Below, in pieces: positions 1 through 21,221 of a stretch of DNA of 21,226 nucleotides (positions are counted from its first letter, which is position 1; the number at the start of each line of letters is the position of its first letter). This stretch comes from an uncultured bacterium (lineage in GTDB: Bacteria; UBA8481), in the NCBI GenBank assembly GCA_964499705.1, contig CAZCME010000009.1:126001-147226 (forward strand), written 5' to 3'. The notes beneath the pieces were generated by a model. The model made no database searches. It had not been told where the DNA came from and saw nothing but the letters and a program-made list of their open reading frames with translations. The position numbers and the translations under genes are program-made.

Positions 1-1
1 C

Positions 2-784
2 GGCGGGATGCTCGACGAGAAAGGCATCACCAGCCCGCCGGATCGAGCGGCGCTACTCGAGAAGATGCGCGACTCGATGGCGCTTGAACTTCTCGCGCAG
101 TATGACACGTTCGCCGCCGCGACCGAGGCGTCGCTCTCGCCGAAGCTCTCCATCTTCATTCCGCCGGTCTCATCGATGCTCCAGTCGGAACGCGCGCCGC
201 TCGCGGAGTTCCTCGAGATCGACCCCGCGATCGTTCTGTGGGCCGCGCGGTATCCGCGCGGGGAAGAGCCCCCGGCAACGCGGATGATCGTCGCGCGTGC
301 CCGAGCGAAGGCCGCCGACGCTTACGCCGCGCTTTCGTTCGCCGATAAGCTCCGCCTCGCCACGCCGAAGGGCGATGCCGCGATCCGGAAGGTTGTCTCG
401 AACGAAGTCGGAGGCCTCGCGTCGAATCTCGGCGCGGGAATCTTTGCGCAGTACGAATCGTATCTCATCCGGATCAACAGGATGCTGGACGAAGAAGGAG
501 TCGCGGACACCGCCGTGCGGAAGATGATCCTCGGGCCGCGCGCGCGCGACATTTCGGACTCGATGCTCGCGCAGTTCGATCGATTCGCGGCGAAGACGCT
601 CGCGTCGTTCAAGGGCACGACGCCCGTCATCGAGACCGCCGCGAAGGAGACGCTTGCCGAGGAACGTGCCGCCCTTGTCGAGAAGCTGGAGATCAGCCCC
701 GGCGCCTACCGGTGGCCCAACGCGCGGCGCGACGCAACCACAGGCGCGACGGTGCCCGTCGCCTCGGGTGGCTCCGCGCGATGA
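2..784 (+). CDS. Hypothetical alpha-helical protein, probably 5'-truncated by the window; paralog of 18798..19934
   Basis: Frame open from base 2, so ATG at 8 is probably internal. Two internal copies of a helical unit (MLDEKGITSPPDR...ERAPLAEFLEIDP; MLDEEGVADTAVR...ERAALVEKLEISP). Aligns without gaps to the 18798..19934 product. Stop TGA 782-784 overlaps ATG 781. Confidence 0.85.
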   Translation, partial: GGMLDEKGITSPPDRAALLEKMRDSMALELLAQYDTFAAATEASLSPKLSIFIPPVSSMLQSERAPLAEFLEIDPAIVLWAARYPRGEEPPATRMIVARARAKAADAYAALSFADKLRLATPKGDAAIRKVVSNEVGGLASNLGAGIFAQYESYLIRINRMLDEEGVADTAVRKMILGPRARDISDSMLAQFDRFAAKTLASFKGTTPVIETAAKETLAEERAALVEKLEISPGAYRWPNARRDATTGATVPVASGGSAR

Positions 785-840
785 TCCGCCGCCTTCTCGT
801 TCCCGCGCTCATTCTCGCGATGGCGATCTCGTCGCACGCC
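781..840 (+). other. Sec/SPI signal peptide of the giant protein
   Basis: Basic n-region (MIRR), hydrophobic core (LLVPALILAMAI), probable cleavage after S-H-A; no lipobox Cys. Confidence 0.85.
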
Positions 841-3800
841 GCGACGATCAGCGACCAGACCTCGACGACGCTCTCGGACGGAACGATCGCGTGTCTCTTC
901 AAGATCACCGATTACGACGCCGCGCGCGACGGCAACCTCTACATGGTCATCACATCGGGAACGACGCGCACCGTCTACAAGCCCGCTGACAATCCGACCG
1001 GCGATGCGAAGTGGAGCGGGTATCAGGGAGTTGTCCTCGCGAGCGGTACGACGATCACGAAGGCGGAGGTCGTGATTCTCGGGACGGCCGTGCCGACGAC
1101 GATGACTGTCGTCGACCGAGCGTTCGGACCCGTCACCCTGAAGCTCGACGTCGCGGGCGACGCGACGGCCGGCTACACTCTGACGCAGAAGGTCACGATC
1201 GCCGACGTCGGATCGTTCGACGCAGCGGGCTCGTGGAATCCGTCTAAGCCCGATGACCCGATCATGATCGAATCGACCAACGTCTACAAGACGCTCCTCG
1301 GAAATCTCCTCTCGGGGTCTTACGCGACCGACGCCTTCTCGATCGGCGACAAGATCACCGCCACCGTGACTCTGCCGCCGGAATGGATCGCGCAGCTCAA
1401 GAAGGGTGTCAGGATGCAGGACGATCTTGCGGCCTTCTCGACCGGCAACTTCAAGATCTCGATCTCGATTCCGTTCACCCTGAAGATCGATCCCACCAAG
1501 CCCGCCTTCGAGATGATCGCGACCATCGATCCGATCGGAAAGACGGCGACTCTCGCGCTCAAGTCCGGGCAGACCTGGTCACAGCCGCTCAATATTCTTC
1601 CGGCGACGCTATCGTCGATGACTATGACGACCGACGCGGCCTTTGCGCGACTGAACGCGAAGGCAGAGGGCGAGATCGACCTCTTCGGCAAGTTCCCGGC
1701 GAGCGTCGAGATCGTCACGTTGAAGGGCATGAAGCCAGACGTGAAGGTTTCGATGAAGCCGGACGTGAAGATCATCATCGGCGCGCTGAAGTCGCTCAAT
1801 ATCCCGATGGAGCTGGAGAGAATTTACCTTCCGATCCTCGAGAAGATCTCGCTCGGGTCGTTCGAGCTGGGCGATATCGGAAATCTCTCGCTCGGGAAGC
1901 TCCCGACCGCGAACCTCGACTTCACGATCGAGCTTCCGAACTGGAAGCACGACTTCAAGGTTTCGATCCCCGACTTCGACATCAACAAGCCCGACATCTT
2001 CGCCCTGAAGCTAGGCGAGGTCGTGTTCCCGGTCCTGAAGGCGGACTTCGACCTGATCCTCGCGGGGCTCGCCGTCGACATGATCGGCATCGGCTCGTGG
2101 ACGCTCGCGGACATCGACCTCGACGTCGTCGATCTCAAGCTGACGGCCGCAGGCGATCCGACCGCCGGATACGATCTCGCCACCGCGCTCACCGTGAAGG
2201 ACATCGGGACGATGAACGCGACCGGCAAGTGGCTCCCGTCGGCGCCGCTCAATCCGATCACGTTCAAGGTCGATAACATCTTCAAGTCGGCGATGGAAGG
2301 GCTTCTCCAGTCCGCCTATCCGGGCGACGCCTTCTCGATGAACGCGCAGGTCGACGTGACGGTCGGTCTCGCTCAGGAGTGGATCGACCGCCTGAAGAGC
2401 GCCACACCGGACAAGACGCCGTTGAAGTCCGGCGCGTACACCGTCGAGATAAGCCTGCCGTTTACTCTGAAGGTCGACCCGACCAAGCCCGCCTTCAACA
2501 TGATCGCGAAGATTGATCCGATCAAGCAGACCGTCGCGATGGGGCTTGCCCCCGGCCAGCAGTGGGTCGATCCGCTCGGGTTCCTCCCGATCACGTTCGA
2601 CAAGATCGACGCGACATCGGACTTCAAGTTCGAGCGGTTCGCGGTCGCGGCGAAATCGAACGTCACCTTCTTCGGCCAGATCCCGGTCGAGGTCTCCGCC
2701 ATCACGCTGAAGGGGATGAAGCCGGACTTCAAGGTTTCGATCAAGCCCGATGTGAAGATCCTCATCGGCGCGCTGAAGAGCCTGAAGATTCCGATCGAGC
2801 TGGAGAAGATCTACCTCCCGATCCTCGATAAGATCTCGCTCGGGTCGTTCGATCTGGGCGACATCTCCTTCGACGGAAAGCTCCCGACGGCGAATCTCGA
2901 CTTCTCGATCGCGCTCCCGAACTGGAACCACGATTTCAAGATCTCGATCCCCGACTTCGACCTCACGAAACCCGACCTCTTCGCGCTGAAGCTGGGCGAA
3001 GTCGTCTTCCCGGTCTTGAAGGCGGACTTCGACGTGATCCTCGCCGGGCTCGCCGTCGACTTTCTCGGCGTCGGCGCCTGGACTCTCGCGGACGTGGACC
3101 TCGACGTCATTCACATCACAGTCGGAGCGGCCGGGAATCCAACGGACGGGTACGATCTCTCGTCGACGATGACGTTGAAGGACATCGGGACGATGAGCGC
3201 GATCGGAAAGTGGCTCCCGTCCGAGCCGCTCGCGCCGGTCACGTTCAAGGTCGACAACATCTTCAAGTCGGCGATGGAAGGGCTTCTCCAGTCCGCCTAT
3301 CCGGGCGACGCCTTCTCGATGAACGCGCAGGTCGACGTGACGGTCGGTCTCGCGCAGGAGTGGATCGACCGCCTGAAGAGCGCCAAGCCCGACACGACTC
3401 CGTTGAAGACCGGAGCGTACACCGTCGAAGTTACTCTGCCTTTCACACTGAAGGTCGACCCTACGAAGACCGCCTTCAATATGGTCGCGAAGATCGATCC
3501 GATCAAGAAGACCGTCTCGATGGGGCTTGCCTCCGGCCAGCAATGGGCCACACCGCTCGGCTTCCTCCCGATCACGTTCGACAAGATCGACGCGACGTCG
3601 GACTTCAACTTCGAGAAGTTCGCCGTCTCGGCGAAGTCGAACATCTCCTTCTTCGGCGACATCCCGATCGAGCTTTCCGCGATCACGCTGAAAGGGATGA
3701 AGCCGGACTTCAAGGTCTCGATCAAACCCGATGTGCAGTTCCTCATCGGCGCCATCAAGTCGATCAACTTCCCACTCAATCTCCAGGATCTCGTCCTACC

Positions 3801-6800
3801 GGTCCTCGAAGGAATCTCCTTCGGCTCGTTCGAACTCGACAAGATCGACTTCGACGGCAAGCTCCCGACGCTGAACCTAAACTTCTCGATTGCGCTCCCG
3901 AACTGGCGTCACGACTTCAAGATCTCGATGCCCGACTTCGACATCGGAAAGCCCGACCTCTTCGCGACTCGGCTCGGCGAGATCGTTCTTCCCGTTCTGA
4001 CAATCAATCTCGACAAGATCACGGCCGGGCTGATGTTCAAGGGCATCTCCGGCTCGTGGACGTTTGTGGACATGGATCTCGGTATCGGAAAGCTCTACCT
4101 CGGCGCGGCGGGCGACGCGACGAAGGGATACGACATGAAGGGCATCGCGTCGCTCATTGATGTCGGCGCGTTGAAAGTCGACGGGTTCTGGACTCCGGCC
4201 GCGCCGCTCGACCCGATCACGTTCACGACAAAGAACATCTTCAAGACCTGGTACGAGAATTCGCTCGGCGGGATGGTGCCGAAGGAGTGGTTCACGCTCG
4301 GCGAGGATATCACCGCGAAGGTCGGGCTCGCGCCGGAGTGGGTCGAGCGATTGAAGCAGGCGAAGCCGGACACGACGCCGTTTACATCAGGCAAGACTAC
4401 GATCGACGTCTCCCTTCCATTCACGCTGAAGTTCGATCCGCAGAAACCCGCCTTCCGGATGACGGCGACGTACAAGGTCATCGAGAAGACGACGACAATC
4501 GCGATGGATCCCGGCCAGAAGTGGGAGAAGCCGCTCGACATTCTCCCGATCACGTTCGACAAGATCACGATCGGCGCGGACGCCTCGTTCACGACGCTCA
4601 CGGTGAACGCGTCCACGAAGCTCGACTTCCTCGTTCCGTGCAGCGCCGATCTGACGCTCGTGACGTCCAAGGGCAAGGATCCGGCGTACTCGGTCTTCCT
4701 GAGGCCCGACGCCGGAACGAACATCGTCAAGGCGATCCTCGACGGCCGCGTCCCTGCCGGGCTCTCAGGCATGGTGAATGGACTCCTGCCGGGAACCGTC
4801 ATCGAGGAGATCGCTGTCGTGATGGACGCGAAGAAGAAGAAGCCCGACGTCCGGATGAAATTCACGATGACGAAGGGCTCGCTCTCGCAGAAGTTCGATA
4901 TTCTCGTGACCGAAGCCGATCTCGGGAACCCGGCCGACTTCTCCGCGAAGGCCGCGCCGCAGATCCTCGATCAGCTGACGAATGGCACGATCGGCAAGGC
5001 GACGACGGAACTGCTCGAGTCGCTCGGCCTCGGCCCGATCGACTGGACAATCCTCGACGTCAATGTTCTCAACCAGCTCATTCTGATGGTGAACGTCAAG
5101 GGCGCCCCAAGCACCGGTTACACGATGACCGCCGACATGAAGGCGCTCATCTTCGAAAAGTTCACGATGACGGGAAAGTGGGATCCGGCGAAGCCGACCG
5201 ATCCGATCAAGTTCACCGCGGACAAGAACGTCTTCAAGCCGAGCTTCGACGCGACGATCGGCAAGCTGATGCCGGAAGGGTCGATGGTGCTGAAGAACGA
5301 GCTATACGCCATCGTCACATTCCCCTCGGCGGTCACGGATGCGCTGAAGTCGAACGGCGCCGGCGGAAAGTCCACAAGCGCCGACGGTCTCGACGTCGAG
5401 ATCGGCTTCCCGATGGAACTGAAGATCGATCCGACGAAGACAACAATGTTCAACATGATCGGGAGCATCTATCCGACGCGCGGCCAGGTCGGTCTCGCGC
5501 TCGCGCCGGGCCAGACGTGGGAAAAGCCCTTCGGCTTCGTGCCCGCGACATTCAACACGCTGAACGTCGCGACGGATCCGAGCTTCACGCAGGTGACGGT
5601 CCACGCCGACGGCACGACCGACTTCTTCGAAGGATCGACGCTCGAATTCCAAATCGACCTTCTTATGGTCCAGGGGCAGAAGCCGGATCTGAAGATCCAG
5701 ACGAAACCTTCGGCCGATCTCATCGCGGCGATCGTCAAACGCGCGAAGGTGCCCGAGGCTCTGGCGGCCTCTCTGCCGTCGGTGACGATCAAGAAGTTCA
5801 AGATCGCGGCGGATTACTCCGCGATGGCGGGCGGCAATGACGGCGGCGCGACCTGCGAGCTGATTCTGAATGTCGATCATGACCTGACCGGTTACATCGA
5901 CATCGAGATCAGCGTCCCGGCCGTGAACCTGACCGATCCCGCGAACTTCGTCGAGATCGTCGCCAAGGAACTCTCGAAGAAGCTGGGAGACGCGGCGAAT
6001 ATCGTCGGCCAGCTCACGCAGAACCTTGGCAAGAAGCTCGGTGATGCCGGGAGCGATCCGCTCGGCACCGCGGAGAAGGCCGCGGATGACGCCGCCAAGA
6101 AAGGCGAGGCACTCGGCACCGAAGCCTACGAGTATATGAAGAATCCGAAGAAGGCCGTGAACCAGCTCGTGGATCTCGGAGAAGACCTCGCAAACAAATT
6201 GTATGACGAGGCGAGCAAGTGGGCGAAGGATCCGATCGGCGAGGCGAGGAAGAAGGCCGAGCAGGCGGTCGCCGCCGCGAAGGCTGTCGTCGAGGGCGCG
6301 CTAAACCTCCTTTCGGATGCCGCGGATTTTCTTTCGGATCTCCTCAGCGACATCTGGGGCGCGATCACGGGCGAGTCCGAGCGGAAAGCCCGGGCGAAGA
6401 AGGCGGATGCCGAAGCAAAGGTCGAAGAGGCGCGGCGTGCGTTGAAAGAGGCCGAGGATCTTGAGCTGGAGGCGATCGAGTTGGTGCGGTATCGCGAGCA
6501 GTTCAAGCAGGCGGTCACGCTACAGCACTGCGAGGACATCATCAGTTCGGTGAAGGTGAACAAGGCCTGCGTCATCGAGGGCGGCGGCATGAAGATTCTC
6601 CGCGCGGCGTCGAACGCGTTCATCAAGGATATCGACGCGAAGAAGTCGAAGATCCGCGAGATCTTCTACGAAGATCTCATCAACGACGGCACAATCATGA
6701 ATCTCGGTTACAAGAAGAACGGCGACGTCTATATGTCGAACACGATGACGAAGGCCGGGATGGAGGAGCTGAAGACGTGGATCGACGGCGATACGCTCTT

Positions 6801-9800: not shown

Positions 9801-12800
9801 CGGGGTGCGCAATGACCTCACCGCCGCGCAGTCGATTGAGGCATGCAACGCGATCAAGGACCAACTGAAGGCGGGTTATTACACGGGGCTGACGGCTGAT
9901 CATAAGGCCGAGTGGACGACGAAAATCGACTCGAAGATCGCGGAGTTGAGATCGAATGGAATCACTGAGTTGTTCACAGACTCCGCAGGCGCGCTGAAGC
10001 TGATTCGCAATTGGATCGAATCGTCGACGAGTAAGGATGACCTGGACAAGGTTCAACGGTATGTCGCCAACTATCCAACCATGAAGCCGTTGCCAGCTTC
10101 AGCGGATTGGGCGGCTTCTGTCTGCAAGCTACTGACCTCCGACCAACGTACTGCGATCAAAAAGGAACTGACTCAGCGGATGGCGATACTTGCAGTTCGG
10201 AACAACATCGCGGCCAAGAACTTCAGGGACGCCCAGACGGGTCTCGATTGGAACATCCAGAATCAGAATCTGACGACTGATCAGGCGACCATGCTGAAGA
10301 AGGAGATCGACGACGCCCAGCGTGCGCCATACGTCGAGAAATACGGCGACGCATGGGTGGCGGTCGACAAGGCATATCGCGACCGAATCCCCGGTCTAAA
10401 GACCGACGCCGATATCACGGCGCTGAAGAGCGAGATCAACGCCGATACGCGTCTGCCGTCCGAGGCGAAGGAACTCCTCTTGAAGGCCGTGACCGACGCG
10501 GGCGCGAAAACCATCAAGGCCGCCGTCCGCGCGTCGATCGCGGAAGTCTACAAGCGGATCATCGGGAGCGACGCCGACGCGACAACGTTGGATGGATACG
10601 TGACGAACTTCGCGACCAAGGGACTGGCGTCGATCGCGACGGAACTCTTCGCTTCGTCCGGATTCACGGGAAAGACGAACACGGAGAAGATCAAGTCCCT
10701 CTACCGGTTCGTCCTGTGGCGCGAGCCTGATAACGCAAAGGTCACAACCTATAACAGCTCGGGAAAGACGATCGCGGCGATCGGTAACGAGATGCAGACG
10801 TTGGACGAATTCAAGAATCTCGCGTCCGATACGAAGACCTTCATCCGGACCGTGCTTGGCTGGTCCACCGGTCAGGCGGCGAGCTTCTCGGCCTCATCGA
10901 ACAATCTCACAAGATGGAAAACGGCAACCTCGTCCGCGGCCTGCGCGACATCCGAGGACGCGAGCAAGGCATTCAACGGCAACGAGAAGGACAAGTGGTG
11001 CTCGACCGCCGGCGAAAAGTGGTTGCAGGTGGATCTCGGCTTGTCATGCAACATCACGGAGTTCGTCATCGCGCATGCCCAGATAGGCGGCGAGCCTTCC
11101 TCGACAAGCTCCGATTATAATACGCGCGACTTCAGCATCTCCGTCAGCGTGGACAATTCCGCGTGGACGAAGGTCGTCGATGTGACCGCTTCTTCGGGCG
11201 CCGTCACGATTCATCCGGTCAAGACCACGGGTCGCTACGTCAAGCTCGCGATCACGAAGCCGACGCAGGGCACTGATCAGGCCGCGCGGATCTACGAGTT
11301 CGAAGTGAACGGTTCCCCCGCGACAACCTTCACACCCTCATCCTCCAACCTCGCGCGGGGAAGGACGGCGACATCGTCTACCGCCTGTGCCACCACCGAG
11401 GCCGCCGACAAGGCGGTCAACGGCAACGGCAAGGACAAGTGGTGTTCGACGGCGAGCGAACGATGGCTGAAGGTTGATCTCGGCGCGTCATGCAACATCA
11501 CAGAATTCGTCATCGCTCACGCGGAAGCGGGCGGCGAAGGCGTGGATTACAACACGAGCGCGTTCGAGATCTCGACCAGCCCGGACAACACGACATGGAC
11601 GAAGGCCGTCACCGTCACCGGAAATACATCGGGTGTGACGAAGCATTCGGTCACGGCCTCGGCGGCGCGCTACGTCAAGCTTGCGATCACGAAGCCCGCC
11701 CAGAATTCAGACAACGCGGCGCGCATCTACGAGTTCGAGGTGAACGGGAGCGTCGTGGGTCCGTCTGCGATCGTCGCGCCTTCTGGATCTGTTTCCGCTC
11801 CGTCCGCGGTTGCCGCACCCTCCGCCGTCGCGGTTGCGCCGTCAGCAGTCGCCATCGCTCCCGCGGCAACAGCCGCGAGAATGGAGGCCGCGCCGCTCGC
11901 GATCGCCGCGCCCGCGTCCGCAGTCATGATTACGCGCGCCGAAACCGCGACGCCGCTTGCGACACGCATCGACACTTCTGCCGCCACAACCGACACACCC
12001 TCCGCGCCCGAACCATGGCAGCTCTGCGAGTTCACCGAGGGCGACATCACCGTCCGGATCGACGCGCTCGGAGACGCGACCGCCGGTTATGAACTCACCG
12101 GCCGCATCGGCCTGAAGGGCACGGCCGCGCTCGGCGGCGAAGGGAATCTTCCGCTCAAGGGGCGATGGGATCCGGCCAATCCGAACGCGCCGGTGAAGTT
12201 CGAGGCCGAGAATATTCTGAAGCCCGGGTTTGAGAAGAGCCTCGGCGAACTGATCCCGAAGGACTGGATCGAACTCGGCGATAAGCTCGGCGCGATCCTG
12301 ACGCTCGATCCACGGTGGATTCAGCGCCTCCAGGCGGGCGAGGACAACCGCGAGGACATCGACTGGTACAAAGAGGAGAAGGTCTACAAGATCGAGCTGG
12401 CCTTCCCGATGAAGCTGAAGCTCGATCCCACAAAGCCCGCCTTCGCGATGACCGTCAAGGCTAATCCGATCCACCACACGGTCGCGATCGAGATGGATCC
12501 CGGTCAGACTTGGGACAAGCCGTTCAACCTCCTGCCGGTCAAGTTCCCGCGCATCAACCTTGGCACCGACGAGAAGGTCTCGAAGTTTGACATCGATGCG
12601 GCCGGCGAGATGGACTTCATCGTCAAGGCGCTCGTCGATATGAAGCTCGTCACGACACCGGGGCGATCGCCGGAATTGAAGCTCGACCTGAAGACGCAGG
12701 GCGACTTCGTCGACGGCGCGTTGAAGCGCGCAGGAATCCCGCCGGAGATCTCTAAGTACTTCACAGCGATCTCGTCGAAGTTCAAGTTCAAGAGCCTCAA

Positions 12801-15800
12801 GATCGACGCGAGCATGGAAGGGCTCAAGAAGGGCGACCTGCCTGACGTCGCGGTCGACTTTGCGATCGAGCTTCCGAACTGGCAACATCACTTCGACTTG
12901 AAGTTTCCCGATGTCGATCTTGCGAACATGCCGAAGTTCGCGAAGCTCTTCGGCGATCAGGTGTGGCCGGTCCTCATCGCGAATCTCCCGAAGATAACGC
13001 TCGGCCTCGCATTCGGCGCGGGCGACCTCTACTTCCCGCTCGCCGACCTCGACCTGGGCGTCGTCACACTCGACATCGACGCGATGGGCAACCTCGCGAA
13101 GGGTTATGACCTCATCGGAAAGATCGCGGTCAAGGATGCTGGTGAGTTCGAGATGAAGGGGCACTGGGATCCTGCGAATCCGCTCGCCGTCATCAAGTTC
13201 GACGCGCCGAACATCTTCAAACCGCTTTATCTCGGCTCGCTCGGCAAGATTCTTCCTGCCGGCGCCTTTGAGTTGGGCGACAAACTCATCGTCGAACTCA
13301 TTCCCGATCCGGGCTGGGTCGAGGTGCTCCAGAAGGCCGGGATCCAGACCGAAGAAGACGCGAAGCGTGCGGGACACGGGTGCAAGATCGACGTCGGCTT
13401 CCCGCTGAAGATGAAACTCGATCCGACGAAGCCACCACTCGATATGGAGATGCGCGTCAACCTCCTCACGAAGATCGCCTCGATGCGCCTCGCATCGTCG
13501 CAGAAATGGGAGAAGCCATTCGATCTTCTTCCGATCAGCTTCACGTCACTTGAGGTCGGCACGGACAAGGAGATGAAGGCGCTCGCGGTCCGCGCCGTCG
13601 GCAAGGCTGACTTCTTTGTCGCTTGCGGCGCGGATCTCGACTTCGAACTGAGCGCTGACGGAAAAGAGAAGCCGTTCACGGTCACGCTGAAGCCCGAGGG
13701 CGACCTCTTCGGCGAGATCGTGAAACTGAGCGGCGCGACGGTTGATCAGAGGAAACTCCTCGACGCGGTACTCCCGGGCCTCCACCTCAACGAACTCACG
13801 ATCGACGGCGATTACGCCGAGATGCAGGCGAAGAAAGGCGCGCCCGATGTGAACTTCAACGTCACACTTGACGCGCTCGGAGCGAAGAAGACCTTCGAGA
13901 TCAAGATCGTCAAGTGCGACTTCGACAAGCCCAAGGTCATCGCGGCGCAGGTTATTCCGCAGATCATCGCCCAGCTCTCCGGCGTCGATCTGAAGGGCGC
14001 CGGCGCCGAACTCCTCGGCGCGCTCGGACTCTCCGGGCAATGGACGCTCATCGACGAGAATCTCCAGTTCTTCGAGATCAAGGTCGAGGCCGAGGGCGAT
14101 CCGAAGACCGGCTACAAGCTCGACGGCTTCGGCAGGATCTCCGGAATCGGCCGCATGAACTTCATCGGGAAGTGGGACGCGGCCGATCCGCTTGCTCCGA
14201 TCGTCTTCGAGGCGGACAACATCTTCAAGCCGATCTTCGAGAAGACGGTCGGAACCGCGGTCCCGAAGGACAAGCTTGAACTCAAGGACAAGCTCTACGT
14301 CGTCATGGGCCTATCCGGACCGCTGGTGGAATCGCTGCGGCGCGGCACGGGAACGTCCGAGGAGGGGCCTAAGAGCGAGGATGAAGACCTTGTCGGCTTC
14401 TCGATCGACGTCAACTTCCCCATAAAGCTCGGGATCGACCCGACGCAGAAGCCCTTCGACATGACCGCGACCGTGAAGCCCCTCGAGCAGACCGCGTCGA
14501 TCGCGCTAGATCCCGGCGTCGTCTGGGACAAACCCTTCGGCATCTTCCCCGTGACCTTCAGCGCGCTGAACGTCGGCACCGATCCGACGTTCACGACCGT
14601 CATCATCGACGCGTCGGGCAAGTCGGACTTCCTCGGCGAGATGGAGTTCAACATCGAAGCGACCTTGAAGAAGAACGAGAAACCGAAGCTGAAGATCCTC
14701 GCTCTTCCGTCCGGCGACATGGTCGCGGCGATCATGAGGAAGGTGAAGATTCCTTCGACCATGGCGACGCCCAAGGTAACGCTCGAGAAGTTCATGATTG
14801 CCGCGGGCTTCGATCAGCTCGTGGCCGGGAAGCTCCCGAGCGCGGCGCTGAAGTTCAAGATCAACACGCTCGCGACCGGCGACGTGAACGTCGACATCAA
14901 CATCCCGAGCATCAGCTTCAAGGAGCCTGACAAGTTCGCCACGGCCGTGGCGAAAGAACTGACGCAGATTCTTTCGCAGATGGTGACGAAGATCGGGCCG
15001 CAGATCATCGCGAACGCGACCGGCACGGTGAAGAGCGCGGTCACGGATCCGGTCGGCACGGGCAGGAAAGCGGCCGAGGCGGGTAAAGAAACCGCCAAGG
15101 ACCTCGGCAACGCCGCATACGACTTTGCGAAGGATCCGGCCGCCGGCACGAAGAACCTCGTCAACGGCGCCGCCGATCTCGGTAAGTCGATCGGCGAGGG
15201 CGCTTACAACGCCGTCAGCGGCGAGGTGAACAAATGGGCGAGTGATCCGGCCGGCGCGGCGTCGGAGAAGGCGCAGGCCGCGATGGCGAAGGCCGAGGAG
15301 GCCTACAACGCCGTCTCGGGATTTATCTCGGACATCGGCGGCGCGGTGTCAGAAATCTTCAGCCGGGAATCCGAGAAGGAAAAGCGCGGCAAGCGGGAGA
15401 TCATCGCTCTGAAGGATCTCAGCGAGCGCGCCAAGTCCGCCAAGACCGTTGCCGATATCAATGCCATCATGGCTGTGACCGACAACAACACCGACCTCTG
15501 CTGGGATGCCAACGGTACGAAGACCTGCGGCCATCGCACGGCCGAGTTCCGGAAGATCCTCCGCGAGATGCGCGACGCCTTCAACGAAGTCACGCTCGAA
15601 AAGCTCCGCGCCCGCGCCGAGAGCGCGACGAGCACGGACCAGCTTCAGAAGATCCTCGACGAGATCGAAGCGAATCCCGACCTCTGCTCGGGTTCGGGCG
15701 ACAAACTTTCCTGCTCCGGAAATGCCGTGAATCTTTGGAACGAGATACTCGCGATGTGGGACAAGGTCGTGGAGAGACGCGAGCAGATCGAGTTGGCGGA

Positions 15801-18800
15801 GATCGAGAAACTTCGAACCGCAGCCGAATCTGCCCGGTCGAAGGACGATCTGAAGAAGATCTTCGACCGGATCGAGAAGAACAAGATCCTCTGCTCGGGT
15901 AGTCGCGCGGCCAAGAACCTCACCTGCTCAATACTCACCTTCGCCTTCTGGAACGAACTCGCCGCGGTCGAGGCTCTTCTCCCCGAGTTCCAGAGGATCG
16001 AGACCGACAAGACCGACGCCGACCTCGACAAGCGGGTCGCGCAAGCCGCAGGATACGGGACGAAATACGGACAGGGGCCGACCTGGGCCAAGCACTTCGA
16101 GAGATTCACGACGGCGCTCGAGGCGCAGAGAGTTGTGGCGAAGGCGCGTCGGTTGAAGCTCGTACGCGAATACATCAAGGACCCCAACACGGGCGGCGGC
16201 CTGATCGCGGTCGCCGAGTGGTTGAGCGGCAAGAGACCGACGCTTACCGGCGTCACAGCGAACGGCATGGTCTGGGAAAAGGCAACGGCCGCGGAAGCTT
16301 TCACCGCGACGGAGATCGAGTCTCTTCAGAAGGAGATCGCTCAACGGAAGTCCGATGACCTCACCGCCGGAATCCTGCGTTCGCTCGGAACAAACTGGAA
16401 CGAGGAGTTTCTGAATCGCGTGAAGAAGTTCCTGGCCGGGGGCCGGGATCCGGAATACGGCGATCCCACGACGCTTTCGAACGAGCAAAGGAAGAAGATT
16501 CAGGAAAAGGTCGATTCAAGACTAGCTGATCTGGCGGAGAAGCGGAACGAAGTGTTCAAGAGGGCGAAGGAGATTATCGCCGGTGTCAAAACGCCCGCAG
16601 GCCTCGACGACTTCGTCCGGAATCTGGAGCAAGGCAGGCTGCTCGACGGCAATGTTAGGCTCGCGATTTCCGCTCTGCAAGCAACGCAGATGGAGGAATT
16701 ATCCAGGTTGATTGAGGTGCAGAGGAAGGCAATCGGAAATGTCGCCGAGACGCAGATGAAGGCGGTTCGCGACAGCGTGGCCAGGGCCTCGTCGATGTAC
16801 GAGCTCTCCGACTACGAAATGCAGCTCAAGGACGGCCGGTCACTCGATTCGTTGAAGGTCAATGCTCTTACCAGCGACCAGATCCAAACGCTCCTGAAGG
16901 AGGTCGCGGCGCGCGAAAAGGAACTTCAGAAGTCGCTTCCGGATCAGCAGGAGAAGGCCTACGTCGATCTCATCAAGACTGCGGACCTCGAGACGCTCAC
17001 GCAGGTCGTCGACGGGCTCTGGAACTGGAAACCCCGAATCGGCATTCTGAACGCTAATCTTCCGGCTGCGAGCGAGATGAGCCGCGCTCAGGTCGATAAG
17101 CTCACGGCAATCGCGAAGCCAAAATTGACTGGAATTATCCTCACGAACGCCCGCGAGTTCATCGAGAAGCAGACAGGCGATGCCCCGCTGAGTGCGATGC
17201 GCGCTTACCTCGGCACATTCATCTCCAATCAGCGGGTTCAGCCGCCGATGCAGACGGCTATCGAAAACTACAAGGTCGACCGTCTTATGCTCTTCAGGCT
17301 GGATCGCCCCGACCTCATAGGCTTGCAATCGACAATTGACAGGCGTCTGGAGACCTTGAAGACCGCCGGCTCGGTCGAGGATTTCCGGAAGCTCATCGCG
17401 ACGGCGAAGGACGCGACTCGGCTCTCGCAACTCATGAGCCATTTCACATCCGACGGTCGCTCGGATCCGTCGCTGAAACTTCCGAGCCCGGCGAAGCTCT
17501 CGAAGACCGAGAAGGATTCATTCGTCGTGGAGATCAAGGAGAAGATGAAAGCTCTCTCCACGCCCGCTGTGATTCCGCTCGGGATCGTGGAGCAGTTCAG
17601 AAAAATCATCGGCACGGAGATGAGTCAGCCGGTTCTCTCCGAGCTTATGAACCACATCCAGTCCGGAGGACGAAATACGAATCCCGCGCGCAAGTGGCCC
17701 GCGACGACGAGTCTCAATCCGAAGGATAAGGAGACCCTTCTCGATGCCATCAAGGCGCGGATCGAATTGCTCAAGAGGCCCGCGAGTACGACGTCGCAGG
17801 GAACGCCGGTTCAACAGCCGTGGGGACAGTCCGCCTCGGGGACGTCATCTGGCGCACCGACGACTACTGCGGCCACGGGCAGCGCGGATGTGAGTCAGAA
17901 GCTCACCGCGATCATCGCCGCCTCCACCGAGATCCCGCTCCTCAATGAACTGATGAACCACGTCCAATCCGGCGGCCGGAACACGAATCCGACGCGGGGT
18001 TGGCCCGCGACAGCGAATCTGGACCAGGGGTCGAGGATTTCGCTCATCGCCGCGATCAGAGGGAAGATCGAGGCAATCCAGCGACAAGTCAGCGCGCCGC
18101 CACAGGGATCGACACAGCCGGCGGCCGCCGCGCCGGCGCAGGGAGTCACGGTGGTCCTCACCTGGACCGATCGCGGCGACGGCGATCTGCTCGTGAACGG
18201 AGCGCCCAGCCATTATAGGGGTGGTTCACCTGACGTCAGAACCGGGCCGGGCGAGGAGAAGATCACGCTGACCTCCGGTGTGAACACGATCGCCGCGCGA
18301 TGGAGCGGCGGACCTGCGGCGAGATTGACGGTCACGATTTATGTTTCGGGGCAGACGCCTCAATTGTTCACGCTGACCTTGAACCCGGGACAGACATCGA
18401 ACTTCTGCACGATCGACGCGGCCAGGAGAACCGTCAGCCCGGCGCCCGGAATCTCGCAAGGGACGCAGCAGCAGAGCGGGGCGTCCTCATCGAGCGGACC
18501 AGTCTGGGTGGCGGTCTCCTGGACGGACGCGGTGGATGTCGATCTCTTCATCGACGGCAAACCCGGTTCCGCGCAGGGTGGATCTCCCGACGTCTCGCGC
18601 GGCCCGGGCGAAGAGAAACTTTCGCTCACCTCTGGAACCCACAAGATCGCGGTGCGTCGCTTCGGCGGAACGCCAACAAAGGTGAAGGTGACGATCGCGA
18701 TACCGGGCAAAGCAACCGAGGTGTTCGAGCAGACCATAGGCTCCGGAGCGCCTGTCGTGTTCGGAACGTTGAACGTCGAACAGAAGGTGTTTGTGAAATG

Positions 18801-18801
18801 A
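781..18801 (+). CDS. Giant secreted multi-repeat protein (6006 aa): 8 unrecognised ~330-aa modules, helical repeat arrays, DUF4214-like, 2x F5/8 type C and 2x YfaP/DUF2135-like domains
   Basis: 18-kb uninterrupted frame with strong G/C-ending codon bias. ATG 781 gives a typical signal peptide (MIRRLLVPALILAMAISSHA/A) and overlaps the upstream stop (ATGA), so it is preferred over the GTG at 712. Confidence 0.95.
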   Translation: MIRRLLVPALILAMAISSHAATISDQTSTTLSDGTIACLFKITDYDAARDGNLYMVITSGTTRTVYKPADNPTGDAKWSGYQGVVLASGTTITKAEVVILGTAVPTTMTVVDRAFGPVTLKLDVAGDATAGYTLTQKVTIADVGSFDAAGSWNPSKPDDPIMIESTNVYKTLLGNLLSGSYATDAFSIGDKITATVTLPPEWIAQLKKGVRMQDDLAAFSTGNFKISISIPFTLKIDPTKPAFEMIATIDPIGKTATLALKSGQTWSQPLNILPATLSSMTMTTDAAFARLNAKAEGEIDLFGKFPASVEIVTLKGMKPDVKVSMKPDVKIIIGALKSLNIPMELERIYLPILEKISLGSFELGDIGNLSLGKLPTANLDFTIELPNWKHDFKVSIPDFDINKPDIFALKLGEVVFPVLKADFDLILAGLAVDMIGIGSWTLADIDLDVVDLKLTAAGDPTAGYDLATALTVKDIGTMNATGKWLPSAPLNPITFKVDNIFKSAMEGLLQSAYPGDAFSMNAQVDVTVGLAQEWIDRLKSATPDKTPLKSGAYTVEISLPFTLKVDPTKPAFNMIAKIDPIKQTVAMGLAPGQQWVDPLGFLPITFDKIDATSDFKFERFAVAAKSNVTFFGQIPVEVSAITLKGMKPDFKVSIKPDVKILIGALKSLKIPIELEKIYLPILDKISLGSFDLGDISFDGKLPTANLDFSIALPNWNHDFKISIPDFDLTKPDLFALKLGEVVFPVLKADFDVILAGLAVDFLGVGAWTLADVDLDVIHITVGAAGNPTDGYDLSSTMTLKDIGTMSAIGKWLPSEPLAPVTFKVDNIFKSAMEGLLQSAYPGDAFSMNAQVDVTVGLAQEWIDRLKSAKPDTTPLKTGAYTVEVTLPFTLKVDPTKTAFNMVAKIDPIKKTVSMGLASGQQWATPLGFLPITFDKIDATSDFNFEKFAVSAKSNISFFGDIPIELSAITLKGMKPDFKVSIKPDVQFLIGAIKSINFPLNLQDLVLPVLEGISFGSFELDKIDFDGKLPTLNLNFSIALPNWRHDFKISMPDFDIGKPDLFATRLGEIVLPVLTINLDKITAGLMFKGISGSWTFVDMDLGIGKLYLGAAGDATKGYDMKGIASLIDVGALKVDGFWTPAAPLDPITFTTKNIFKTWYENSLGGMVPKEWFTLGEDITAKVGLAPEWVERLKQAKPDTTPFTSGKTTIDVSLPFTLKFDPQKPAFRMTATYKVIEKTTTIAMDPGQKWEKPLDILPITFDKITIGADASFTTLTVNASTKLDFLVPCSADLTLVTSKGKDPAYSVFLRPDAGTNIVKAILDGRVPAGLSGMVNGLLPGTVIEEIAVVMDAKKKKPDVRMKFTMTKGSLSQKFDILVTEADLGNPADFSAKAAPQILDQLTNGTIGKATTELLESLGLGPIDWTILDVNVLNQLILMVNVKGAPSTGYTMTADMKALIFEKFTMTGKWDPAKPTDPIKFTADKNVFKPSFDATIGKLMPEGSMVLKNELYAIVTFPSAVTDALKSNGAGGKSTSADGLDVEIGFPMELKIDPTKTTMFNMIGSIYPTRGQVGLALAPGQTWEKPFGFVPATFNTLNVATDPSFTQVTVHADGTTDFFEGSTLEFQIDLLMVQGQKPDLKIQTKPSADLIAAIVKRAKVPEALAASLPSVTIKKFKIAADYSAMAGGNDGGATCELILNVDHDLTGYIDIEISVPAVNLTDPANFVEIVAKELSKKLGDAANIVGQLTQNLGKKLGDAGSDPLGTAEKAADDAAKKGEALGTEAYEYMKNPKKAVNQLVDLGEDLANKLYDEASKWAKDPIGEARKKAEQAVAAAKAVVEGALNLLSDAADFLSDLLSDIWGAITGESERKARAKKADAEAKVEEARRALKEAEDLELEAIELVRYREQFKQAVTLQHCEDIISSVKVNKACVIEGGGMKILRAASNAFIKDIDAKKSKIREIFYEDLINDGTIMNLGYKKNGDVYMSNTMTKAGMEELKTWIDGDTLLNSASKTSLKALIDKKLTPPAIDRDTAMAWIRYLALHENDRILTALKKHINGEYVDNYVLFPNVSNLSSGDKTTLQGELDIAIAAYIAKKSEREYALFIDMIENAKTDAELVGYKAWIRSMDVLSKAPVSDLEYLSVTQVEDLRNRIDARRKNIGVEGGTATVRAIKSVIARQLGQANVLSYDLVSYLAQMGKMIDQSFTATDGRTKETRMTADGSAEHFRFKDIWAPLKFEMEIRSDLFRLGQVDDTAVKALTADHRKTVITAVEAAIAKLIALDSLYDTYAEWSTAMTAYVASSSRDDVYAELDERISRIATVEDAERALNHLTDEARAFKWPDIRKLSAGDTSTLIAKIEAKLDGYRQTAFTTAKSWIENSFENPEWLFKADKYLKGVLHLHEVKPMPDLSFLKRAQVRDLQKLVAEKLKPYAQMQNIRDYMNNPARTGAQLKLLEDLLGGFTNTGLPEELGTVATMTTEQTATLKAELKIVREPFTSIDYVRWYIGKESNVLFLKWMQESLLGTAKHDWGGNMYVEKIPSGTLATLQNDVAAKIAEIEAQAVNGLATIKKQIADAPTLKELKAWSSYIVSTPRGPKPREDAPDIANISADDLTNVYWYDIGPLEKDAVKLTAQLEKVSTETEAATLIADIAKSTLGTAFKASLTADAEKMRTAYKTGGSETMLKFKKWVTEFAGPSIEPLRIFCFFLREPYGSYNNQPPSGQDWMGSLVGSLREGEKSALYKAVELQAERNALKNATTVAECEAILAEYTSSSAASKVVVWDYSGVEEAKAEINAKITALKAAAAAAAAAEKPNALKRIRDWTASATDRDLLDKAARFVFNYRQLAPPAGITWIDTDVGLQTSADRTILFNEMELRQSVLYVREKAAPLTTVADLEALRKDVSGYNYGDTVKAVLYKEIDPKIASLKEAAATAAAASQAILTKGRDWLATVTDKEKAFDLYRYIHNYPSTSYAPPAGMEWLNAEIVALNADDRASLKNDAAATGNLIGVRNDLTAAQSIEACNAIKDQLKAGYYTGLTADHKAEWTTKIDSKIAELRSNGITELFTDSAGALKLIRNWIESSTSKDDLDKVQRYVANYPTMKPLPASADWAASVCKLLTSDQRTAIKKELTQRMAILAVRNNIAAKNFRDAQTGLDWNIQNQNLTTDQATMLKKEIDDAQRAPYVEKYGDAWVAVDKAYRDRIPGLKTDADITALKSEINADTRLPSEAKELLLKAVTDAGAKTIKAAVRASIAEVYKRIIGSDADATTLDGYVTNFATKGLASIATELFASSGFTGKTNTEKIKSLYRFVLWREPDNAKVTTYNSSGKTIAAIGNEMQTLDEFKNLASDTKTFIRTVLGWSTGQAASFSASSNNLTRWKTATSSAACATSEDASKAFNGNEKDKWCSTAGEKWLQVDLGLSCNITEFVIAHAQIGGEPSSTSSDYNTRDFSISVSVDNSAWTKVVDVTASSGAVTIHPVKTTGRYVKLAITKPTQGTDQAARIYEFEVNGSPATTFTPSSSNLARGRTATSSTACATTEAADKAVNGNGKDKWCSTASERWLKVDLGASCNITEFVIAHAEAGGEGVDYNTSAFEISTSPDNTTWTKAVTVTGNTSGVTKHSVTASAARYVKLAITKPAQNSDNAARIYEFEVNGSVVGPSAIVAPSGSVSAPSAVAAPSAVAVAPSAVAIAPAATAARMEAAPLAIAAPASAVMITRAETATPLATRIDTSAATTDTPSAPEPWQLCEFTEGDITVRIDALGDATAGYELTGRIGLKGTAALGGEGNLPLKGRWDPANPNAPVKFEAENILKPGFEKSLGELIPKDWIELGDKLGAILTLDPRWIQRLQAGEDNREDIDWYKEEKVYKIELAFPMKLKLDPTKPAFAMTVKANPIHHTVAIEMDPGQTWDKPFNLLPVKFPRINLGTDEKVSKFDIDAAGEMDFIVKALVDMKLVTTPGRSPELKLDLKTQGDFVDGALKRAGIPPEISKYFTAISSKFKFKSLKIDASMEGLKKGDLPDVAVDFAIELPNWQHHFDLKFPDVDLANMPKFAKLFGDQVWPVLIANLPKITLGLAFGAGDLYFPLADLDLGVVTLDIDAMGNLAKGYDLIGKIAVKDAGEFEMKGHWDPANPLAVIKFDAPNIFKPLYLGSLGKILPAGAFELGDKLIVELIPDPGWVEVLQKAGIQTEEDAKRAGHGCKIDVGFPLKMKLDPTKPPLDMEMRVNLLTKIASMRLASSQKWEKPFDLLPISFTSLEVGTDKEMKALAVRAVGKADFFVACGADLDFELSADGKEKPFTVTLKPEGDLFGEIVKLSGATVDQRKLLDAVLPGLHLNELTIDGDYAEMQAKKGAPDVNFNVTLDALGAKKTFEIKIVKCDFDKPKVIAAQVIPQIIAQLSGVDLKGAGAELLGALGLSGQWTLIDENLQFFEIKVEAEGDPKTGYKLDGFGRISGIGRMNFIGKWDAADPLAPIVFEADNIFKPIFEKTVGTAVPKDKLELKDKLYVVMGLSGPLVESLRRGTGTSEEGPKSEDEDLVGFSIDVNFPIKLGIDPTQKPFDMTATVKPLEQTASIALDPGVVWDKPFGIFPVTFSALNVGTDPTFTTVIIDASGKSDFLGEMEFNIEATLKKNEKPKLKILALPSGDMVAAIMRKVKIPSTMATPKVTLEKFMIAAGFDQLVAGKLPSAALKFKINTLATGDVNVDINIPSISFKEPDKFATAVAKELTQILSQMVTKIGPQIIANATGTVKSAVTDPVGTGRKAAEAGKETAKDLGNAAYDFAKDPAAGTKNLVNGAADLGKSIGEGAYNAVSGEVNKWASDPAGAASEKAQAAMAKAEEAYNAVSGFISDIGGAVSEIFSRESEKEKRGKREIIALKDLSERAKSAKTVADINAIMAVTDNNTDLCWDANGTKTCGHRTAEFRKILREMRDAFNEVTLEKLRARAESATSTDQLQKILDEIEANPDLCSGSGDKLSCSGNAVNLWNEILAMWDKVVERREQIELAEIEKLRTAAESARSKDDLKKIFDRIEKNKILCSGSRAAKNLTCSILTFAFWNELAAVEALLPEFQRIETDKTDADLDKRVAQAAGYGTKYGQGPTWAKHFERFTTALEAQRVVAKARRLKLVREYIKDPNTGGGLIAVAEWLSGKRPTLTGVTANGMVWEKATAAEAFTATEIESLQKEIAQRKSDDLTAGILRSLGTNWNEEFLNRVKKFLAGGRDPEYGDPTTLSNEQRKKIQEKVDSRLADLAEKRNEVFKRAKEIIAGVKTPAGLDDFVRNLEQGRLLDGNVRLAISALQATQMEELSRLIEVQRKAIGNVAETQMKAVRDSVARASSMYELSDYEMQLKDGRSLDSLKVNALTSDQIQTLLKEVAAREKELQKSLPDQQEKAYVDLIKTADLETLTQVVDGLWNWKPRIGILNANLPAASEMSRAQVDKLTAIAKPKLTGIILTNAREFIEKQTGDAPLSAMRAYLGTFISNQRVQPPMQTAIENYKVDRLMLFRLDRPDLIGLQSTIDRRLETLKTAGSVEDFRKLIATAKDATRLSQLMSHFTSDGRSDPSLKLPSPAKLSKTEKDSFVVEIKEKMKALSTPAVIPLGIVEQFRKIIGTEMSQPVLSELMNHIQSGGRNTNPARKWPATTSLNPKDKETLLDAIKARIELLKRPASTTSQGTPVQQPWGQSASGTSSGAPTTTAATGSADVSQKLTAIIAASTEIPLLNELMNHVQSGGRNTNPTRGWPATANLDQGSRISLIAAIRGKIEAIQRQVSAPPQGSTQPAAAAPAQGVTVVLTWTDRGDGDLLVNGAPSHYRGGSPDVRTGPGEEKITLTSGVNTIAARWSGGPAARLTVTIYVSGQTPQLFTLTLNPGQTSNFCTIDAARRTVSPAPGISQGTQQQSGASSSSGPVWVAVSWTDAVDVDLFIDGKPGSAQGGSPDVSRGPGEEKLSLTSGTHKIAVRRFGGTPTKVKVTIAIPGKATEVFEQTIGSGAPVVFGTLNVEQKVFVK
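1102..5990 (+). repeat. Five tandem ~326-332-aa beta-rich modules (R1-R5)
   Basis: Unit starts at about 1102, 2098, 3079, 4057 and 5044. Shared motifs: G(D/N)xTxGY, GxWxPxxPxxPI, N(I/V)(F/Y)K, LKxDP(T/Q)K, GQxWxxPxxxxP, and PNWxHDF in R1-R3. Confidence 0.9.
6055..6402 (+). other. Pro-kinked amphipathic helical segment, copy 1
   Basis: DPLGTAEKAA..., NPKKAVNQLV..., KWAKDPIGEARKKAEQA..., ending ESERKARAKK; homologous to 15046..15396. Confidence 0.7.
6760..10500 (+). repeat. Array of degenerate short alpha-helical repeats (half 1)
   Basis: Recurring L(S/T)xx(D/Q/H)xxxLxxxI(D/E)x(K/R)(I/L) ends, e.g. LSSGDKTTLQGELDIAI, LSVTQVEDLRNRIDARR, LSAGDTSTLIAKIEAKL, LTADHKAEWTTKIDSKI. Confidence 0.7.
9184..9210 (+). 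repeat. (GCC)8-GCG trinucleotide tract encoding 9 Ala
   Basis: gccgccgccgccgccgccgccgccgcg, in frame, between helical repeats. Confidence 0.95.
10519..10818 (+). other. DUF4214-like domain within the giant protein
   Basis: IAEVYKRIIGSDADATTLDGY...IATELFASSGF...NTEKIKSLYRFVLWREPD...LDEF resembles the DUF4214 pattern (LYxxxLGRxPD...SxEF). Confidence 0.65.
10903..11748 (+). repeat. Two tandem F5/8 type C (discoidin/CBM32-like) domains: 10903-11313 and 11347-11748
   Basis: Both carry NL...ATSS, KA(F/V)NG...KWCS, WL(Q/K)VDLG, FxISxSxDNxxWT, RYVKLAIT and ARIYEFEVNG, which are typical F5/8 type C motifs. Confidence 0.92.
11749..12015 (+). other. Ala/Pro/Ser/Thr-rich linker joining the two halves
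   Basis: PSAIVAPSGSVSAPSAVAAPSAVAVAPSAVAIAPAA...TTDTPSAPEP, with short APSAV repeats. Confidence 0.8.
12016..14990 (+). repeat. Three further copies of the ~330-340-aa module (R6-R8)
   Basis: Unit starts at about 12016, 13033 and 14041; same motifs as R1-R5 (GDATAGY, WDPANP, NIFKP, KLDPTKP, W(D/E)KPF, IELPNWQHHF). Confidence 0.9.
15046..15396 (+). other. Pro-kinked amphipathic helical segment, copy 2
   Basis: DPVGTGRKAA..., DPAAGTKNLV..., KWASDPAGAASEKAQAA..., ending ESEKEKRGKR. Confidence 0.7.
15420..18090 (+). repeat. Helical repeat array of half 2, starting with three Cys-loop repeats
   Basis: LC-x8-C, LC-x8-C and LC-x10-C (first Cys at 15499, 15685, 15892), then units ending LSNEQRKKIQEKVDSRL, LTSDQIQTLLKEVAARE, LSKTEKDSFVVEIKEKM, LNPKDKETLLDAIKARI, LDQGSRISLIAAIRGKI. 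Confidence 0.75.
18142..18798 (+). repeat. Two C-terminal beta-sandwich domains, YfaP/DUF2135-like (18142-18417 and 18499-18798)
   Basis: VVLTWTDRGDGDLLVNG...GGSPDVRTGPGEEKITL and VAVSWTDAVDVDLFIDG...GGSPDVSRGPGEEKLSL resemble the VxLxW...DxDLxV...D...GxGPE pattern of YfaP/DUF2135. Confidence 0.6.
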
Positions 18802-21138: not shown

Positions 21139-21221
21139 TGGAGGGAGAAGGATTCGAACCTTCGAAGGCGTGAGCCAGCGGGTTTACAGCCCGCCCCATT
21201 TGGCCGCTTTGGTATCCCTCC
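21139..21221 (-). tRNA. tRNA-Tyr (anticodon GTA), CCA not encoded
   Basis: Reverse complement GGAGGGATACCAAAGCGGCCAAATGGGGCGGGCTGTAAACCCGCTGGCTCACGCCTTCGAAGGTTCGAATCCTTCTCCCTCCA: 7-bp acceptor stem, GCGGG/CCCGC anticodon stem with CTGTAAA loop, long variable arm, GTTCGAATC T-loop, discriminator A. Confidence 0.97.

Follow-up and report, generated by a model that had tools for sequence, protein, structure and literature searches.

Giant fibrillar adhesins of Gram-negative bacteria, the LapA type among them, reportedly leave the cell by type I secretion, and the 1.5-MDa adhesin of Marinomonas primoryensis is said to carry a PA14 lectin domain. Phage tail fibres carry receptor-binding tips that can be exchanged, with an assembly chaperone encoded downstream. 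PMC8092209 deals with giant fibrillar adhesins that contain lectin modules. The gene analysed in this study lies in a 21,226-nucleotide stretch of DNA (the window) from an uncultured groundwater bacterium of the GTDB lineage UBA8481 (GenBank assembly GCA_964499705.1, contig CAZCME010000009.1, positions 126,001 to 147,226). A single open frame starting with the ATG at 781 encodes a product of about 640 kDa, P0001; an alternative GTG start at 712 would add 23 residues and overlap the upstream gene. We are highly confident that P0001 is one genuine gene that arose when two old paralogues fused, and the best explanation of the whole, in which two genes of a head-base-stalk-tip family were joined head to tail and in frame, is likely.

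The giant protein resembles the fibrillar adhesins in having a proximal end, a very long extender and carbohydrate-binding modules near the far end, in its modularity and in its megadalton scale. Unlike them, it has an N-terminal Sec leader, a helix-rich extender, a base of ~330-residue modules outside the named families and a small partner gene. A Pfam scan of the protein in four pieces covering all 6006 residues (E<=0.1) found no RTX repeats, type I signal or Ig-like extender repeats. By analogy, phage tail fibres share a conserved proximal part, exchangeable distal tips and a small gene coupled downstream. They differ in that the giant protein and its partner have Sec-type leaders, the viral contig collection yielded no relative, and the neighbourhood is free of phage structural genes.

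The N half of the giant protein (residues 1-3668) consists of a leader, a head domain, modules A-A-A-B-C, an Asp-Pro linker, a stalk, a DUF4214-like segment and two discoidin domains. The C half (residues ~3744-6006) consists of modules A-B-C, a linker, a stalk and two orphan beta-sandwich domains. The discoidin pair is the sole Pfam match; every other part, from the head and modules to the linkers, the stalks and the C-terminal pair, is without a Pfam or NCBIfam family. Eight modules of ~330 residues, five in the N half (residues 106-1760) and three in the C half (residues 3744-4760), were found by self-BLAST in 300-residue chunks, with pairwise E-values of 1e-15 to 1e-160, far beyond chance. 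The head domain is present in one copy in the whole window.

An earlier sequence-only reading of this DNA had described two homologous halves fused head to tail with a common order of module subtypes, and this description agrees with the module comparisons, the stand-alone counterparts of the halves and the bridged junction reported below. The motif PNWxH, which it used to mark R1-R3 and R6, occurs in those four modules only (residues 386, 713, 1040 and 4032), and the signature motifs it gave for R4/R7 and R5/R8 are present in the eight-module alignment. Identity between modules of opposite halves is 25-36%. In a tree of the eight modules they group by position as predicted, with supports of 100/99 for R5+R8, 70/92 for R4+R7 and 41/59 for R1-R3+R6. 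Constraining the modules to cluster by half cost 30 log-likelihood units and was rejected by the approximately unbiased test (p-AU 0.006); module type follows position, not half.

The eight-module profile gave 13 matches at E<=0.001 among 1.84 billion representative proteins. The family is very rare and unnamed, and the source names covered are all 'hypothetical', 'uncharacterized' or a tip-domain label. Stand-alone proteins with one half only, which had also been predicted, are found for both halves. P0003 (the same protein as P0005; 3537 residues, also read from genome G043) is labelled at source as a hypothetical protein of a Candidatus Lindowbacteria metagenome-assembled genome (MAG), with the order leader, head, A-A-A-B-C, linker, stalk, DUF4214 and two discoidin domains. 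N-half residues 20-1920 are 47% identical to P0003 residues 28-1961, and residues 3010-3656 are 40% identical to residues 2914-3536, with 56% in the discoidin pair. P0006 (3243 residues, from an Elusimicrobia MAG) has an N-half-type base without the discoidin tip. These proteins are like the giant protein in their signal peptide, head, A-A-A-B-C base, linker, stalk and downstream partner; unlike it, they end after the first tip and have no second base-stalk-tip unit.

The counterpart of the C half is P0008 (2397 residues, from an assembly contig of 10051 nt), in which a head is followed by modules A-B-C. C-half residues 3715-4892 are 57% identical to P0008 residues 70-1249 over 1193 columns, and the base of P0008 is orthologous to R6-R8. 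Unlike the C half, P0008 has its own head, an N-half-type stalk and no beta tip; none is seen in P0006 either. In its stalk P0008 is similar to the N half (25% over 736 columns, E 2e-37) and not to the C half, so that a C-half-type base is combined with an N-half-type stalk.

An unrooted tree of 29 modules, the eight of the window and 21 from relatives, recovers the three types as clades (C 100/100, B 97/94, A 80/75). R6, R7 and R8 pair with P0008 modules 1, 2 and 3 at 100/100, 100/100 and 85/97, R4 and R5 group with the B and C modules of P0003, P0006 and P0007 at 100/99 and 100/100, and R1-R3 fall together at 98/90. Because R1-R3 are mutual nearest relatives, the A modules must have multiplied or been homogenised inside this gene. 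An origin in place, in which one three-module gene was tandemly duplicated, fused and diverged and the first copy gained extra A modules, would account for two colinear, homologous halves, and the closeness of R1-R3 does show module duplication within the gene. We consider it very improbable, given the identities of 47% to P0003 and 57% to P0008 compared with those between modules of opposite halves, and given that R6-R8 pair with P0008 modules and R4 and R5 fall with the five-module proteins. These placements and identities date the split of the two lineages before the fusion.

The preferred fusion of two old paralogues therefore implies an old lineage duplication and a later fusion, since each half is much nearer to stand-alone genes in other uncultured bacteria than to the other half (about 30% identity). 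The earlier proposal that an ancestral gene was duplicated and then fused is supported, with the refinement that the duplication dates far back and did not take place within this gene. The three-module base that it took as ancestral holds for these two lineages; three modules are not necessarily ancestral for the whole family because one-module members exist. As a separate observation on the array, R2 and R3 (window 2092-4050) are ~78% identical at the protein level, well above every other module pair, and the distinct third A module of P0003, P0006 and P0007 has no orthologue in the window in the 29-module tree. Together these points indicate a recent duplication or gene conversion in the array.

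Gene fission, with the fused form as ancestor of the stand-alone five-module and three-module proteins, is given some room by a tree from which direction is unreadable and by the small number of members known (the 13 matches). It is made unlikely by P0008, which bears the family's head domain, as a C-half fission product would need to regain one; P0008 and all six other relatives aligned begin with the head. One fused form is seen against stand-alone forms in both Lindowbacteria- and Elusimicrobia-labelled sources. A word-based search with the R6-R8 region found no relative among proteins of 3303-10511 residues, a search that also missed P0005, which lies in that range. On this evidence we regard fission as a highly unlikely course.

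The fusion of two stand-alone genes requires that the junction be real. The possibility that two adjacent genes were joined by mis-assembly, or that a stop codon or frameshift was erased by sequencing error, deserves attention as the junction is of low complexity and GC-rich (0.69-0.70), hence hard for assemblers, and the genome is a 45-contig draft. In each of three runs, drawn from two studies, a separately assembled Logan contig spans the linker at 11785-12009 with 0 differences and no joints: X1 covers 11332-12366, X2 10500-12358 and X3 11586-12101, with X2 and X3 coming from a groundwater study other than that of X1. GC content at third codon positions stays at the coding level through the junction (0.66-0.78), one short 18-nt repeat is the only repeat there, and a separate start, signal peptide or head for the C half is lacking in every frame. 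An artefact is thus extremely improbable, and the mis-assembly that the sequence-only reading had named as a risk is not borne out. None of the public runs listed as containing the stretch is an RNA run.

No second head domain or partner-gene remnant was significant near the junction in any frame. The nine residues VMITRAETA were considered as a relic of the head's last strand and rejected, the match being a BLAST extension only with E about 5.

In the sequence of events that we propose, a five-module gene with discoidin tips and a three-module gene with another tip would have been joined in frame. The signal peptide and head of the C half would have been lost at the fusion, with a 75-residue Ala/Pro/Ser/Thr-rich linker in their place, and across the family the base would be kept while stalks and tips are exchanged. 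Several points weigh against this account. The bridging contigs are short-read assemblies, and X1 is possibly non-independent, as the window may derive from it. P0008 starts with 'M' right at the head, without a signal peptide, and its gene model is possibly cut; its locus had no match among the genome and metagenome contigs. The module tree has no root, so that the ancestral number of modules is presumptive.

We defined the family by a leader and head, at least one ~330-residue module with type C as the last, an Asp-Pro helical linker and a downstream partner gene. The giant protein has all of these, and the C half has all except the leader and head. P0004/P0010 and P0011 have a head and one type C module, P0004 with bulb-lectin (B_lectin) domains. 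Distant members are P0013, labelled at source as a RICIN-domain protein and from a Clostridia MAG, and P0015, from a Dependentiae MAG, so that the source labels comprise Candidatus Lindowbacteria, Elusimicrobia, Clostridia and Dependentiae MAGs. The fragment P0009 has a linker and Cys-pair units 66% identical to those of the C half. The family's tips are discoidin, bulb-lectin, ricin-labelled or orphan beta-sandwich domains, or are absent, in agreement with the earlier picture of a conserved base with swappable tips. P0016 (492 residues, from an AT-rich source) is a minimal member, consisting of a leader, one module with a partial score and a helical tail that is rich in Lys and very basic, and may be the simplest form of the base.

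The family is sparsely distributed. In a search of 61 genomes of relatives that included the window's own genome (G000), only G000 and G043 matched, and the module profile had no match in the 4 other genomes (86-96% complete) of the own phylum scope, which comprises 5 genomes in all. Within its own genome the ~330-residue module is confined to this gene. No published description of the family was found in the covered part of the full-text literature or of preprint 10.1101/2023.11.21.568195. The family, its module and its partner are therefore undescribed in the literature covered, while gene fusion and tip exchange are familiar processes.

The coordinates of the gene's features and of the two partner genes that flank it are collected in Table 1.

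Table 1. Positions in the window of the features of the fused gene and its flanking partner genes.
Feature	Position	Strand	Residues	Remarks
Upstream partner gene, 3' part in window	1..784	+		full gene 330 residues, L017:11793-12785; predicted secreted helical repeat protein
Giant open reading frame (ORF) P0001, fused gene	781..18801	+	6006 residues	
Putative Sec-type signal peptide	781..846	+	1-22	hydrophobic leader read by eye; alignment of N-termini
Head domain	847..1095	+	23-105	37-49% identity to the N-terminal domain of 7 stand-alone relatives
Modules R1-R3, type A	1096..4050	+	R1 106-437; R2 438-764; R3 765-1090	PNWxH motif; mutual nearest relatives
Module R4, type B	4051..5040	+	1091-1420	
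Module R5, type C	5041..6060	+	1421-1760	last of N-half base
N-half linker	6061..6480	+		Asp-Pro-punctuated predicted helices ending GESERKARAKK; conserved across family
N-half stalk	6481..10530	+		predicted helix-rich array; Cys pair 1917/1930; ~130-residue repeats at residues 2711-3177
Pre-tip segment	10531..10875	+		43% identity to DUF4214-bearing segment of P0003
Tip 1, two F5/8 type C (discoidin) domains	10876..11784	+	~3366-3668	PF00754
Fusion junction, 75-residue linker	11785..12009	+		71% of residues Ala, Pro, Ser or Thr
Module R6, type A	12010..13026	+	3744-4082	PNWxH; 71% identity to P0008 module 1
Module R7, type B	13027..14034	+	4083-4418	
Module R8, type C	14035..15060	+	4419-4760	the modelled module; predicted beta-rich two-sub-domain fold, then long helix
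C-half linker	15061..15480	+		Asp-Pro predicted helices ending SRESEKEKRGKR
C-half stalk	15481..18135	+		three Cys-pair units, predicted helical repeats (~71 residues, residues 5530-5777), low-complexity spacer
Tip 2, two orphan predicted beta-sandwich domains	18136..18798	+		
Downstream partner gene	18798..19934	+		378 residues; predicted secreted helical repeat protein

The linkers that follow the two bases (residues 1651-1874 and 4651-4872) are 31% identical and end in GESERKA at residue 1864 and SRESEKE at residue 4861, as expected of Asp-Pro-kinked helices closing with ESE and basic residues in both halves. Paired cysteines, likewise noted earlier, follow the linker at 1917/1930 in the N half and at 4907/4916, 4969/4978 and 5038/5049 in the C half. 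The stalk arrays appear to be helical, as suggested by their composition and by the single modelled helix at the start of the linker. In P0003, residues 3156-3217 match DUF4214 (PF13946) with 31.5 bits against a cut-off of 23.2; the window segment aligned to it (residues 3252-3359) has no Pfam listing at E<=0.1.

Two tandem beta domains had been said to end each half, and this is so for the N half by Pfam and for the C half by modelling. PF00754 matches the first tip in two stretches with 119.5 bits against a cut-off of 28.2, which agrees with the F5/8 type C pair named in the sequence-only reading, and the two copies are 63% identical. The C-terminal pair (residues 5763-5883 and 5878-6002) is 41% identical, and its last domain is modelled as a beta-sandwich (predicted local distance difference test score, pLDDT, 86.8). 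Hmmscan of residues 5764-6006 gave no Pfam family at E<=5 and no NCBIfam at E<=1, and the 'YfaP-like' name once given to the pair is not supported: a search of the complete genome for YfaP/DUF2135 (PF09906) was empty at E<=10, and the Escherichia coli control matched above the cut-off. The orphan tip has no homologue of 133-426 residues and no PDB sequence match at E<=10, and its best Atlas score, 0.83, is below the useful range.

Structural searches returned matches within the common range. For the last tip domain Foldseek gave no match at E<=0.001; the best matches were TerD 2qz7 (Z 6.7, root-mean-square deviation (rmsd) 3.3, 102 aligned) and the calcium-dependent carbohydrate-binding module 2xhh (Z 6.1, rmsd 3.4, 88 aligned), both in that range. 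R8 was modelled with AlphaFold2 from a 16-row alignment (pLDDT 79, predicted template-modelling score 0.67) as two sub-domains, the N-terminal one rich in beta structure and the second one mixed, and a long C-terminal helix running into the linker. Foldseek again gave no match at E<=0.001. In a wide structural search, R8 residues 1-150 were nearest to 8-stranded barrels, of which 3dzm scored Z 7.0 (rmsd 5.6, 114 aligned) and avidins about Z 6.3, and the second sub-domain best matched a chain of the LptDE-YedD complex (Z 5.1). We therefore leave the fold of the module unassigned.

The two flanking partner genes are paralogous (25-27% identity) and both overlap the giant gene. The TGA of the upstream partner overlaps the giant ATG (ATGA at 781-784), and the ATG of the downstream partner overlaps the giant TGA (ATGA at 18798-18801). 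In all four loci with DNA context (the window, L015, L016 and L037) the gene immediately downstream of the giant gene is a partner homologue; L015 has two copies, and the window has its further copy upstream. The partner family is as rare as that of the giant protein: a search of 5.8 billion clusters gave four matches, itself included, and their names are all uninformative.

Complex prediction of the downstream partner with R8 plus linker and the head scored 0.45, against 0.00 for the best of three controls. Of 80 solved complexes 58 reached the mark used, as did 2 of 110 mismatched pairs, and scores of 0.60 or less at the mark came from only 7 of the 80 solved complexes and from both of the mismatches. 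At least 73% of contacts are common to the runs, and the pLDDT of the partner is at least 74. Binding of the partner to the base is conceivable on these scores, although we lean against it.

A hydrophobic N-terminal leader suggests that the giant protein is Sec-exported. The signal peptide would carry it out of the cytoplasm, and the partner would likewise be Sec-exported. The head and base, possibly with the small secreted partners, would form the cell-proximal or assembly end, and the helical stalks would act as spacers projecting tips of sugar-binding type. The fused chain would then present two different tips, the first roughly two-thirds of the way along and the second at its end. A binding role for the tips would follow from the established carbohydrate or ligand binding of the discoidin and bulb-lectin families. 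We lean slightly towards a secreted or surface binding fibre, and its function at the surface would probably be to bind glycans.

Type V secretion, by a trimeric or monomeric autotransporter, was considered and rejected, the C-terminus being a duplicated beta-sandwich of soluble type with no Pfam or NCBIfam match, where a barrel translocator would be expected. Type IX cargo was rejected as well: residues 5764-6006 have no sorting-domain match (Pfam E<=5, NCBIfam E<=1), and the last domain is one of two tandem copies.

A number of observations count against the binding fibre. Pfam and NCBIfam give no anchoring or secretion signature for the C-terminus, the head or the modules. No outer-membrane route is accounted for in the case of a Sec-exported 640-kDa protein, which could be retained in the periplasm. 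The match of the module fold is middling (best Z 7.0) and within the common range, the TerD match of the last domain may reflect a common sandwich arrangement, and a binding role for the orphan tip is a guess. The complex prediction lends weak support to a partner-base contact.

A different job for the protein is therefore to be weighed, in which the base is the active part, engaging membranes or lipids or acting as an effector, with the tips only aiming it, or in which the whole serves as a scaffold in the envelope or periplasm and not as an adhesin-like fibre. Conservation is concentrated in the base, as expected of a functional core, the N-terminal sub-domain of its module is nearest to 8-stranded barrels of outer-membrane and ligand-binding types (Z 6-7, middling), and a surface-anchor signature is lacking. 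Such a job is somewhat unlikely: no catalytic or toxin family was matched anywhere in the 6006 residues by Pfam or NCBIfam, the structural matches are of the common range already noted, and fibrous adhesins are usually laid out in this way, with their tips distal on long stalks.

A broader reading would make the family and its partner an unrecognised surface apparatus of uncultured groundwater bacteria, with a self-assembling base, made from a new beta-rich module and a dedicated secreted partner, and interchangeable ligand-binding tips on helical stalks, and the fused gene a two-tipped version able to bridge two targets, for example a partner cell and a substrate. This is unlikely. The fusion is a clear case of a megadalton protein growing by the joining of whole base-stalk-tip genes, besides repeat expansion, and it exposes an unannotated family in which a new ~330-residue module goes with lectin-type tips that are exchanged and with a partner gene that is conserved. 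Should the tips bind glycans, proteins of this family would be candidate means by which little-known groundwater lineages attach to surfaces or other cells. Until a member has been expressed and located, the practical benefit is small.

The surroundings of these genes include genes of other kinds. A YhcG/DUF1016 PDDEXK nuclease gene (L017:10633-11796) lies just before the upstream partner with a 4-nt overlap, and in L015 an ORF6N/Rha-type gene lies between the two partner copies; the cassettes seem to be places where small genes of mobile-element type settle. The giant-plus-partner pair is also flanked by two further genes in L016 (1830-3413 and 12420-14885) and L037 (3990-5561 and 16536-17831), that is, in the Lindowbacteria and Elusimicrobia loci, between which they are 50% and 47% identical. 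One encodes a 527-residue Ser/Thr/Asn/Tyr-rich protein with no Pfam family, and the other a secreted protein of 821 residues that combines an Ig domain of NBR1 type with a Gly-rich tail. Both have weaker homologues (28-32%) that adjoin on another contig of the window's genome (C1:388879-392782, L039-L041).

Further upstream on the window's contig, three consecutive large genes (L017:1765-4002, 4002-8816 and ~8813-10636) have a common, unusual N-terminal leader of ~40-60 residues, with 48-58% mutual identity. In the third gene the leader match lies at residue 617 of the listed ORF, which suggests that the true start overlaps the previous stop. The 1604-residue L017 protein has right-handed beta-helix repeats. 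At the other side of the window a tRNA-Tyr (GTA) gene occupies 21139-21221 on the minus strand, 5 nt from the window end, which is also the contig end.

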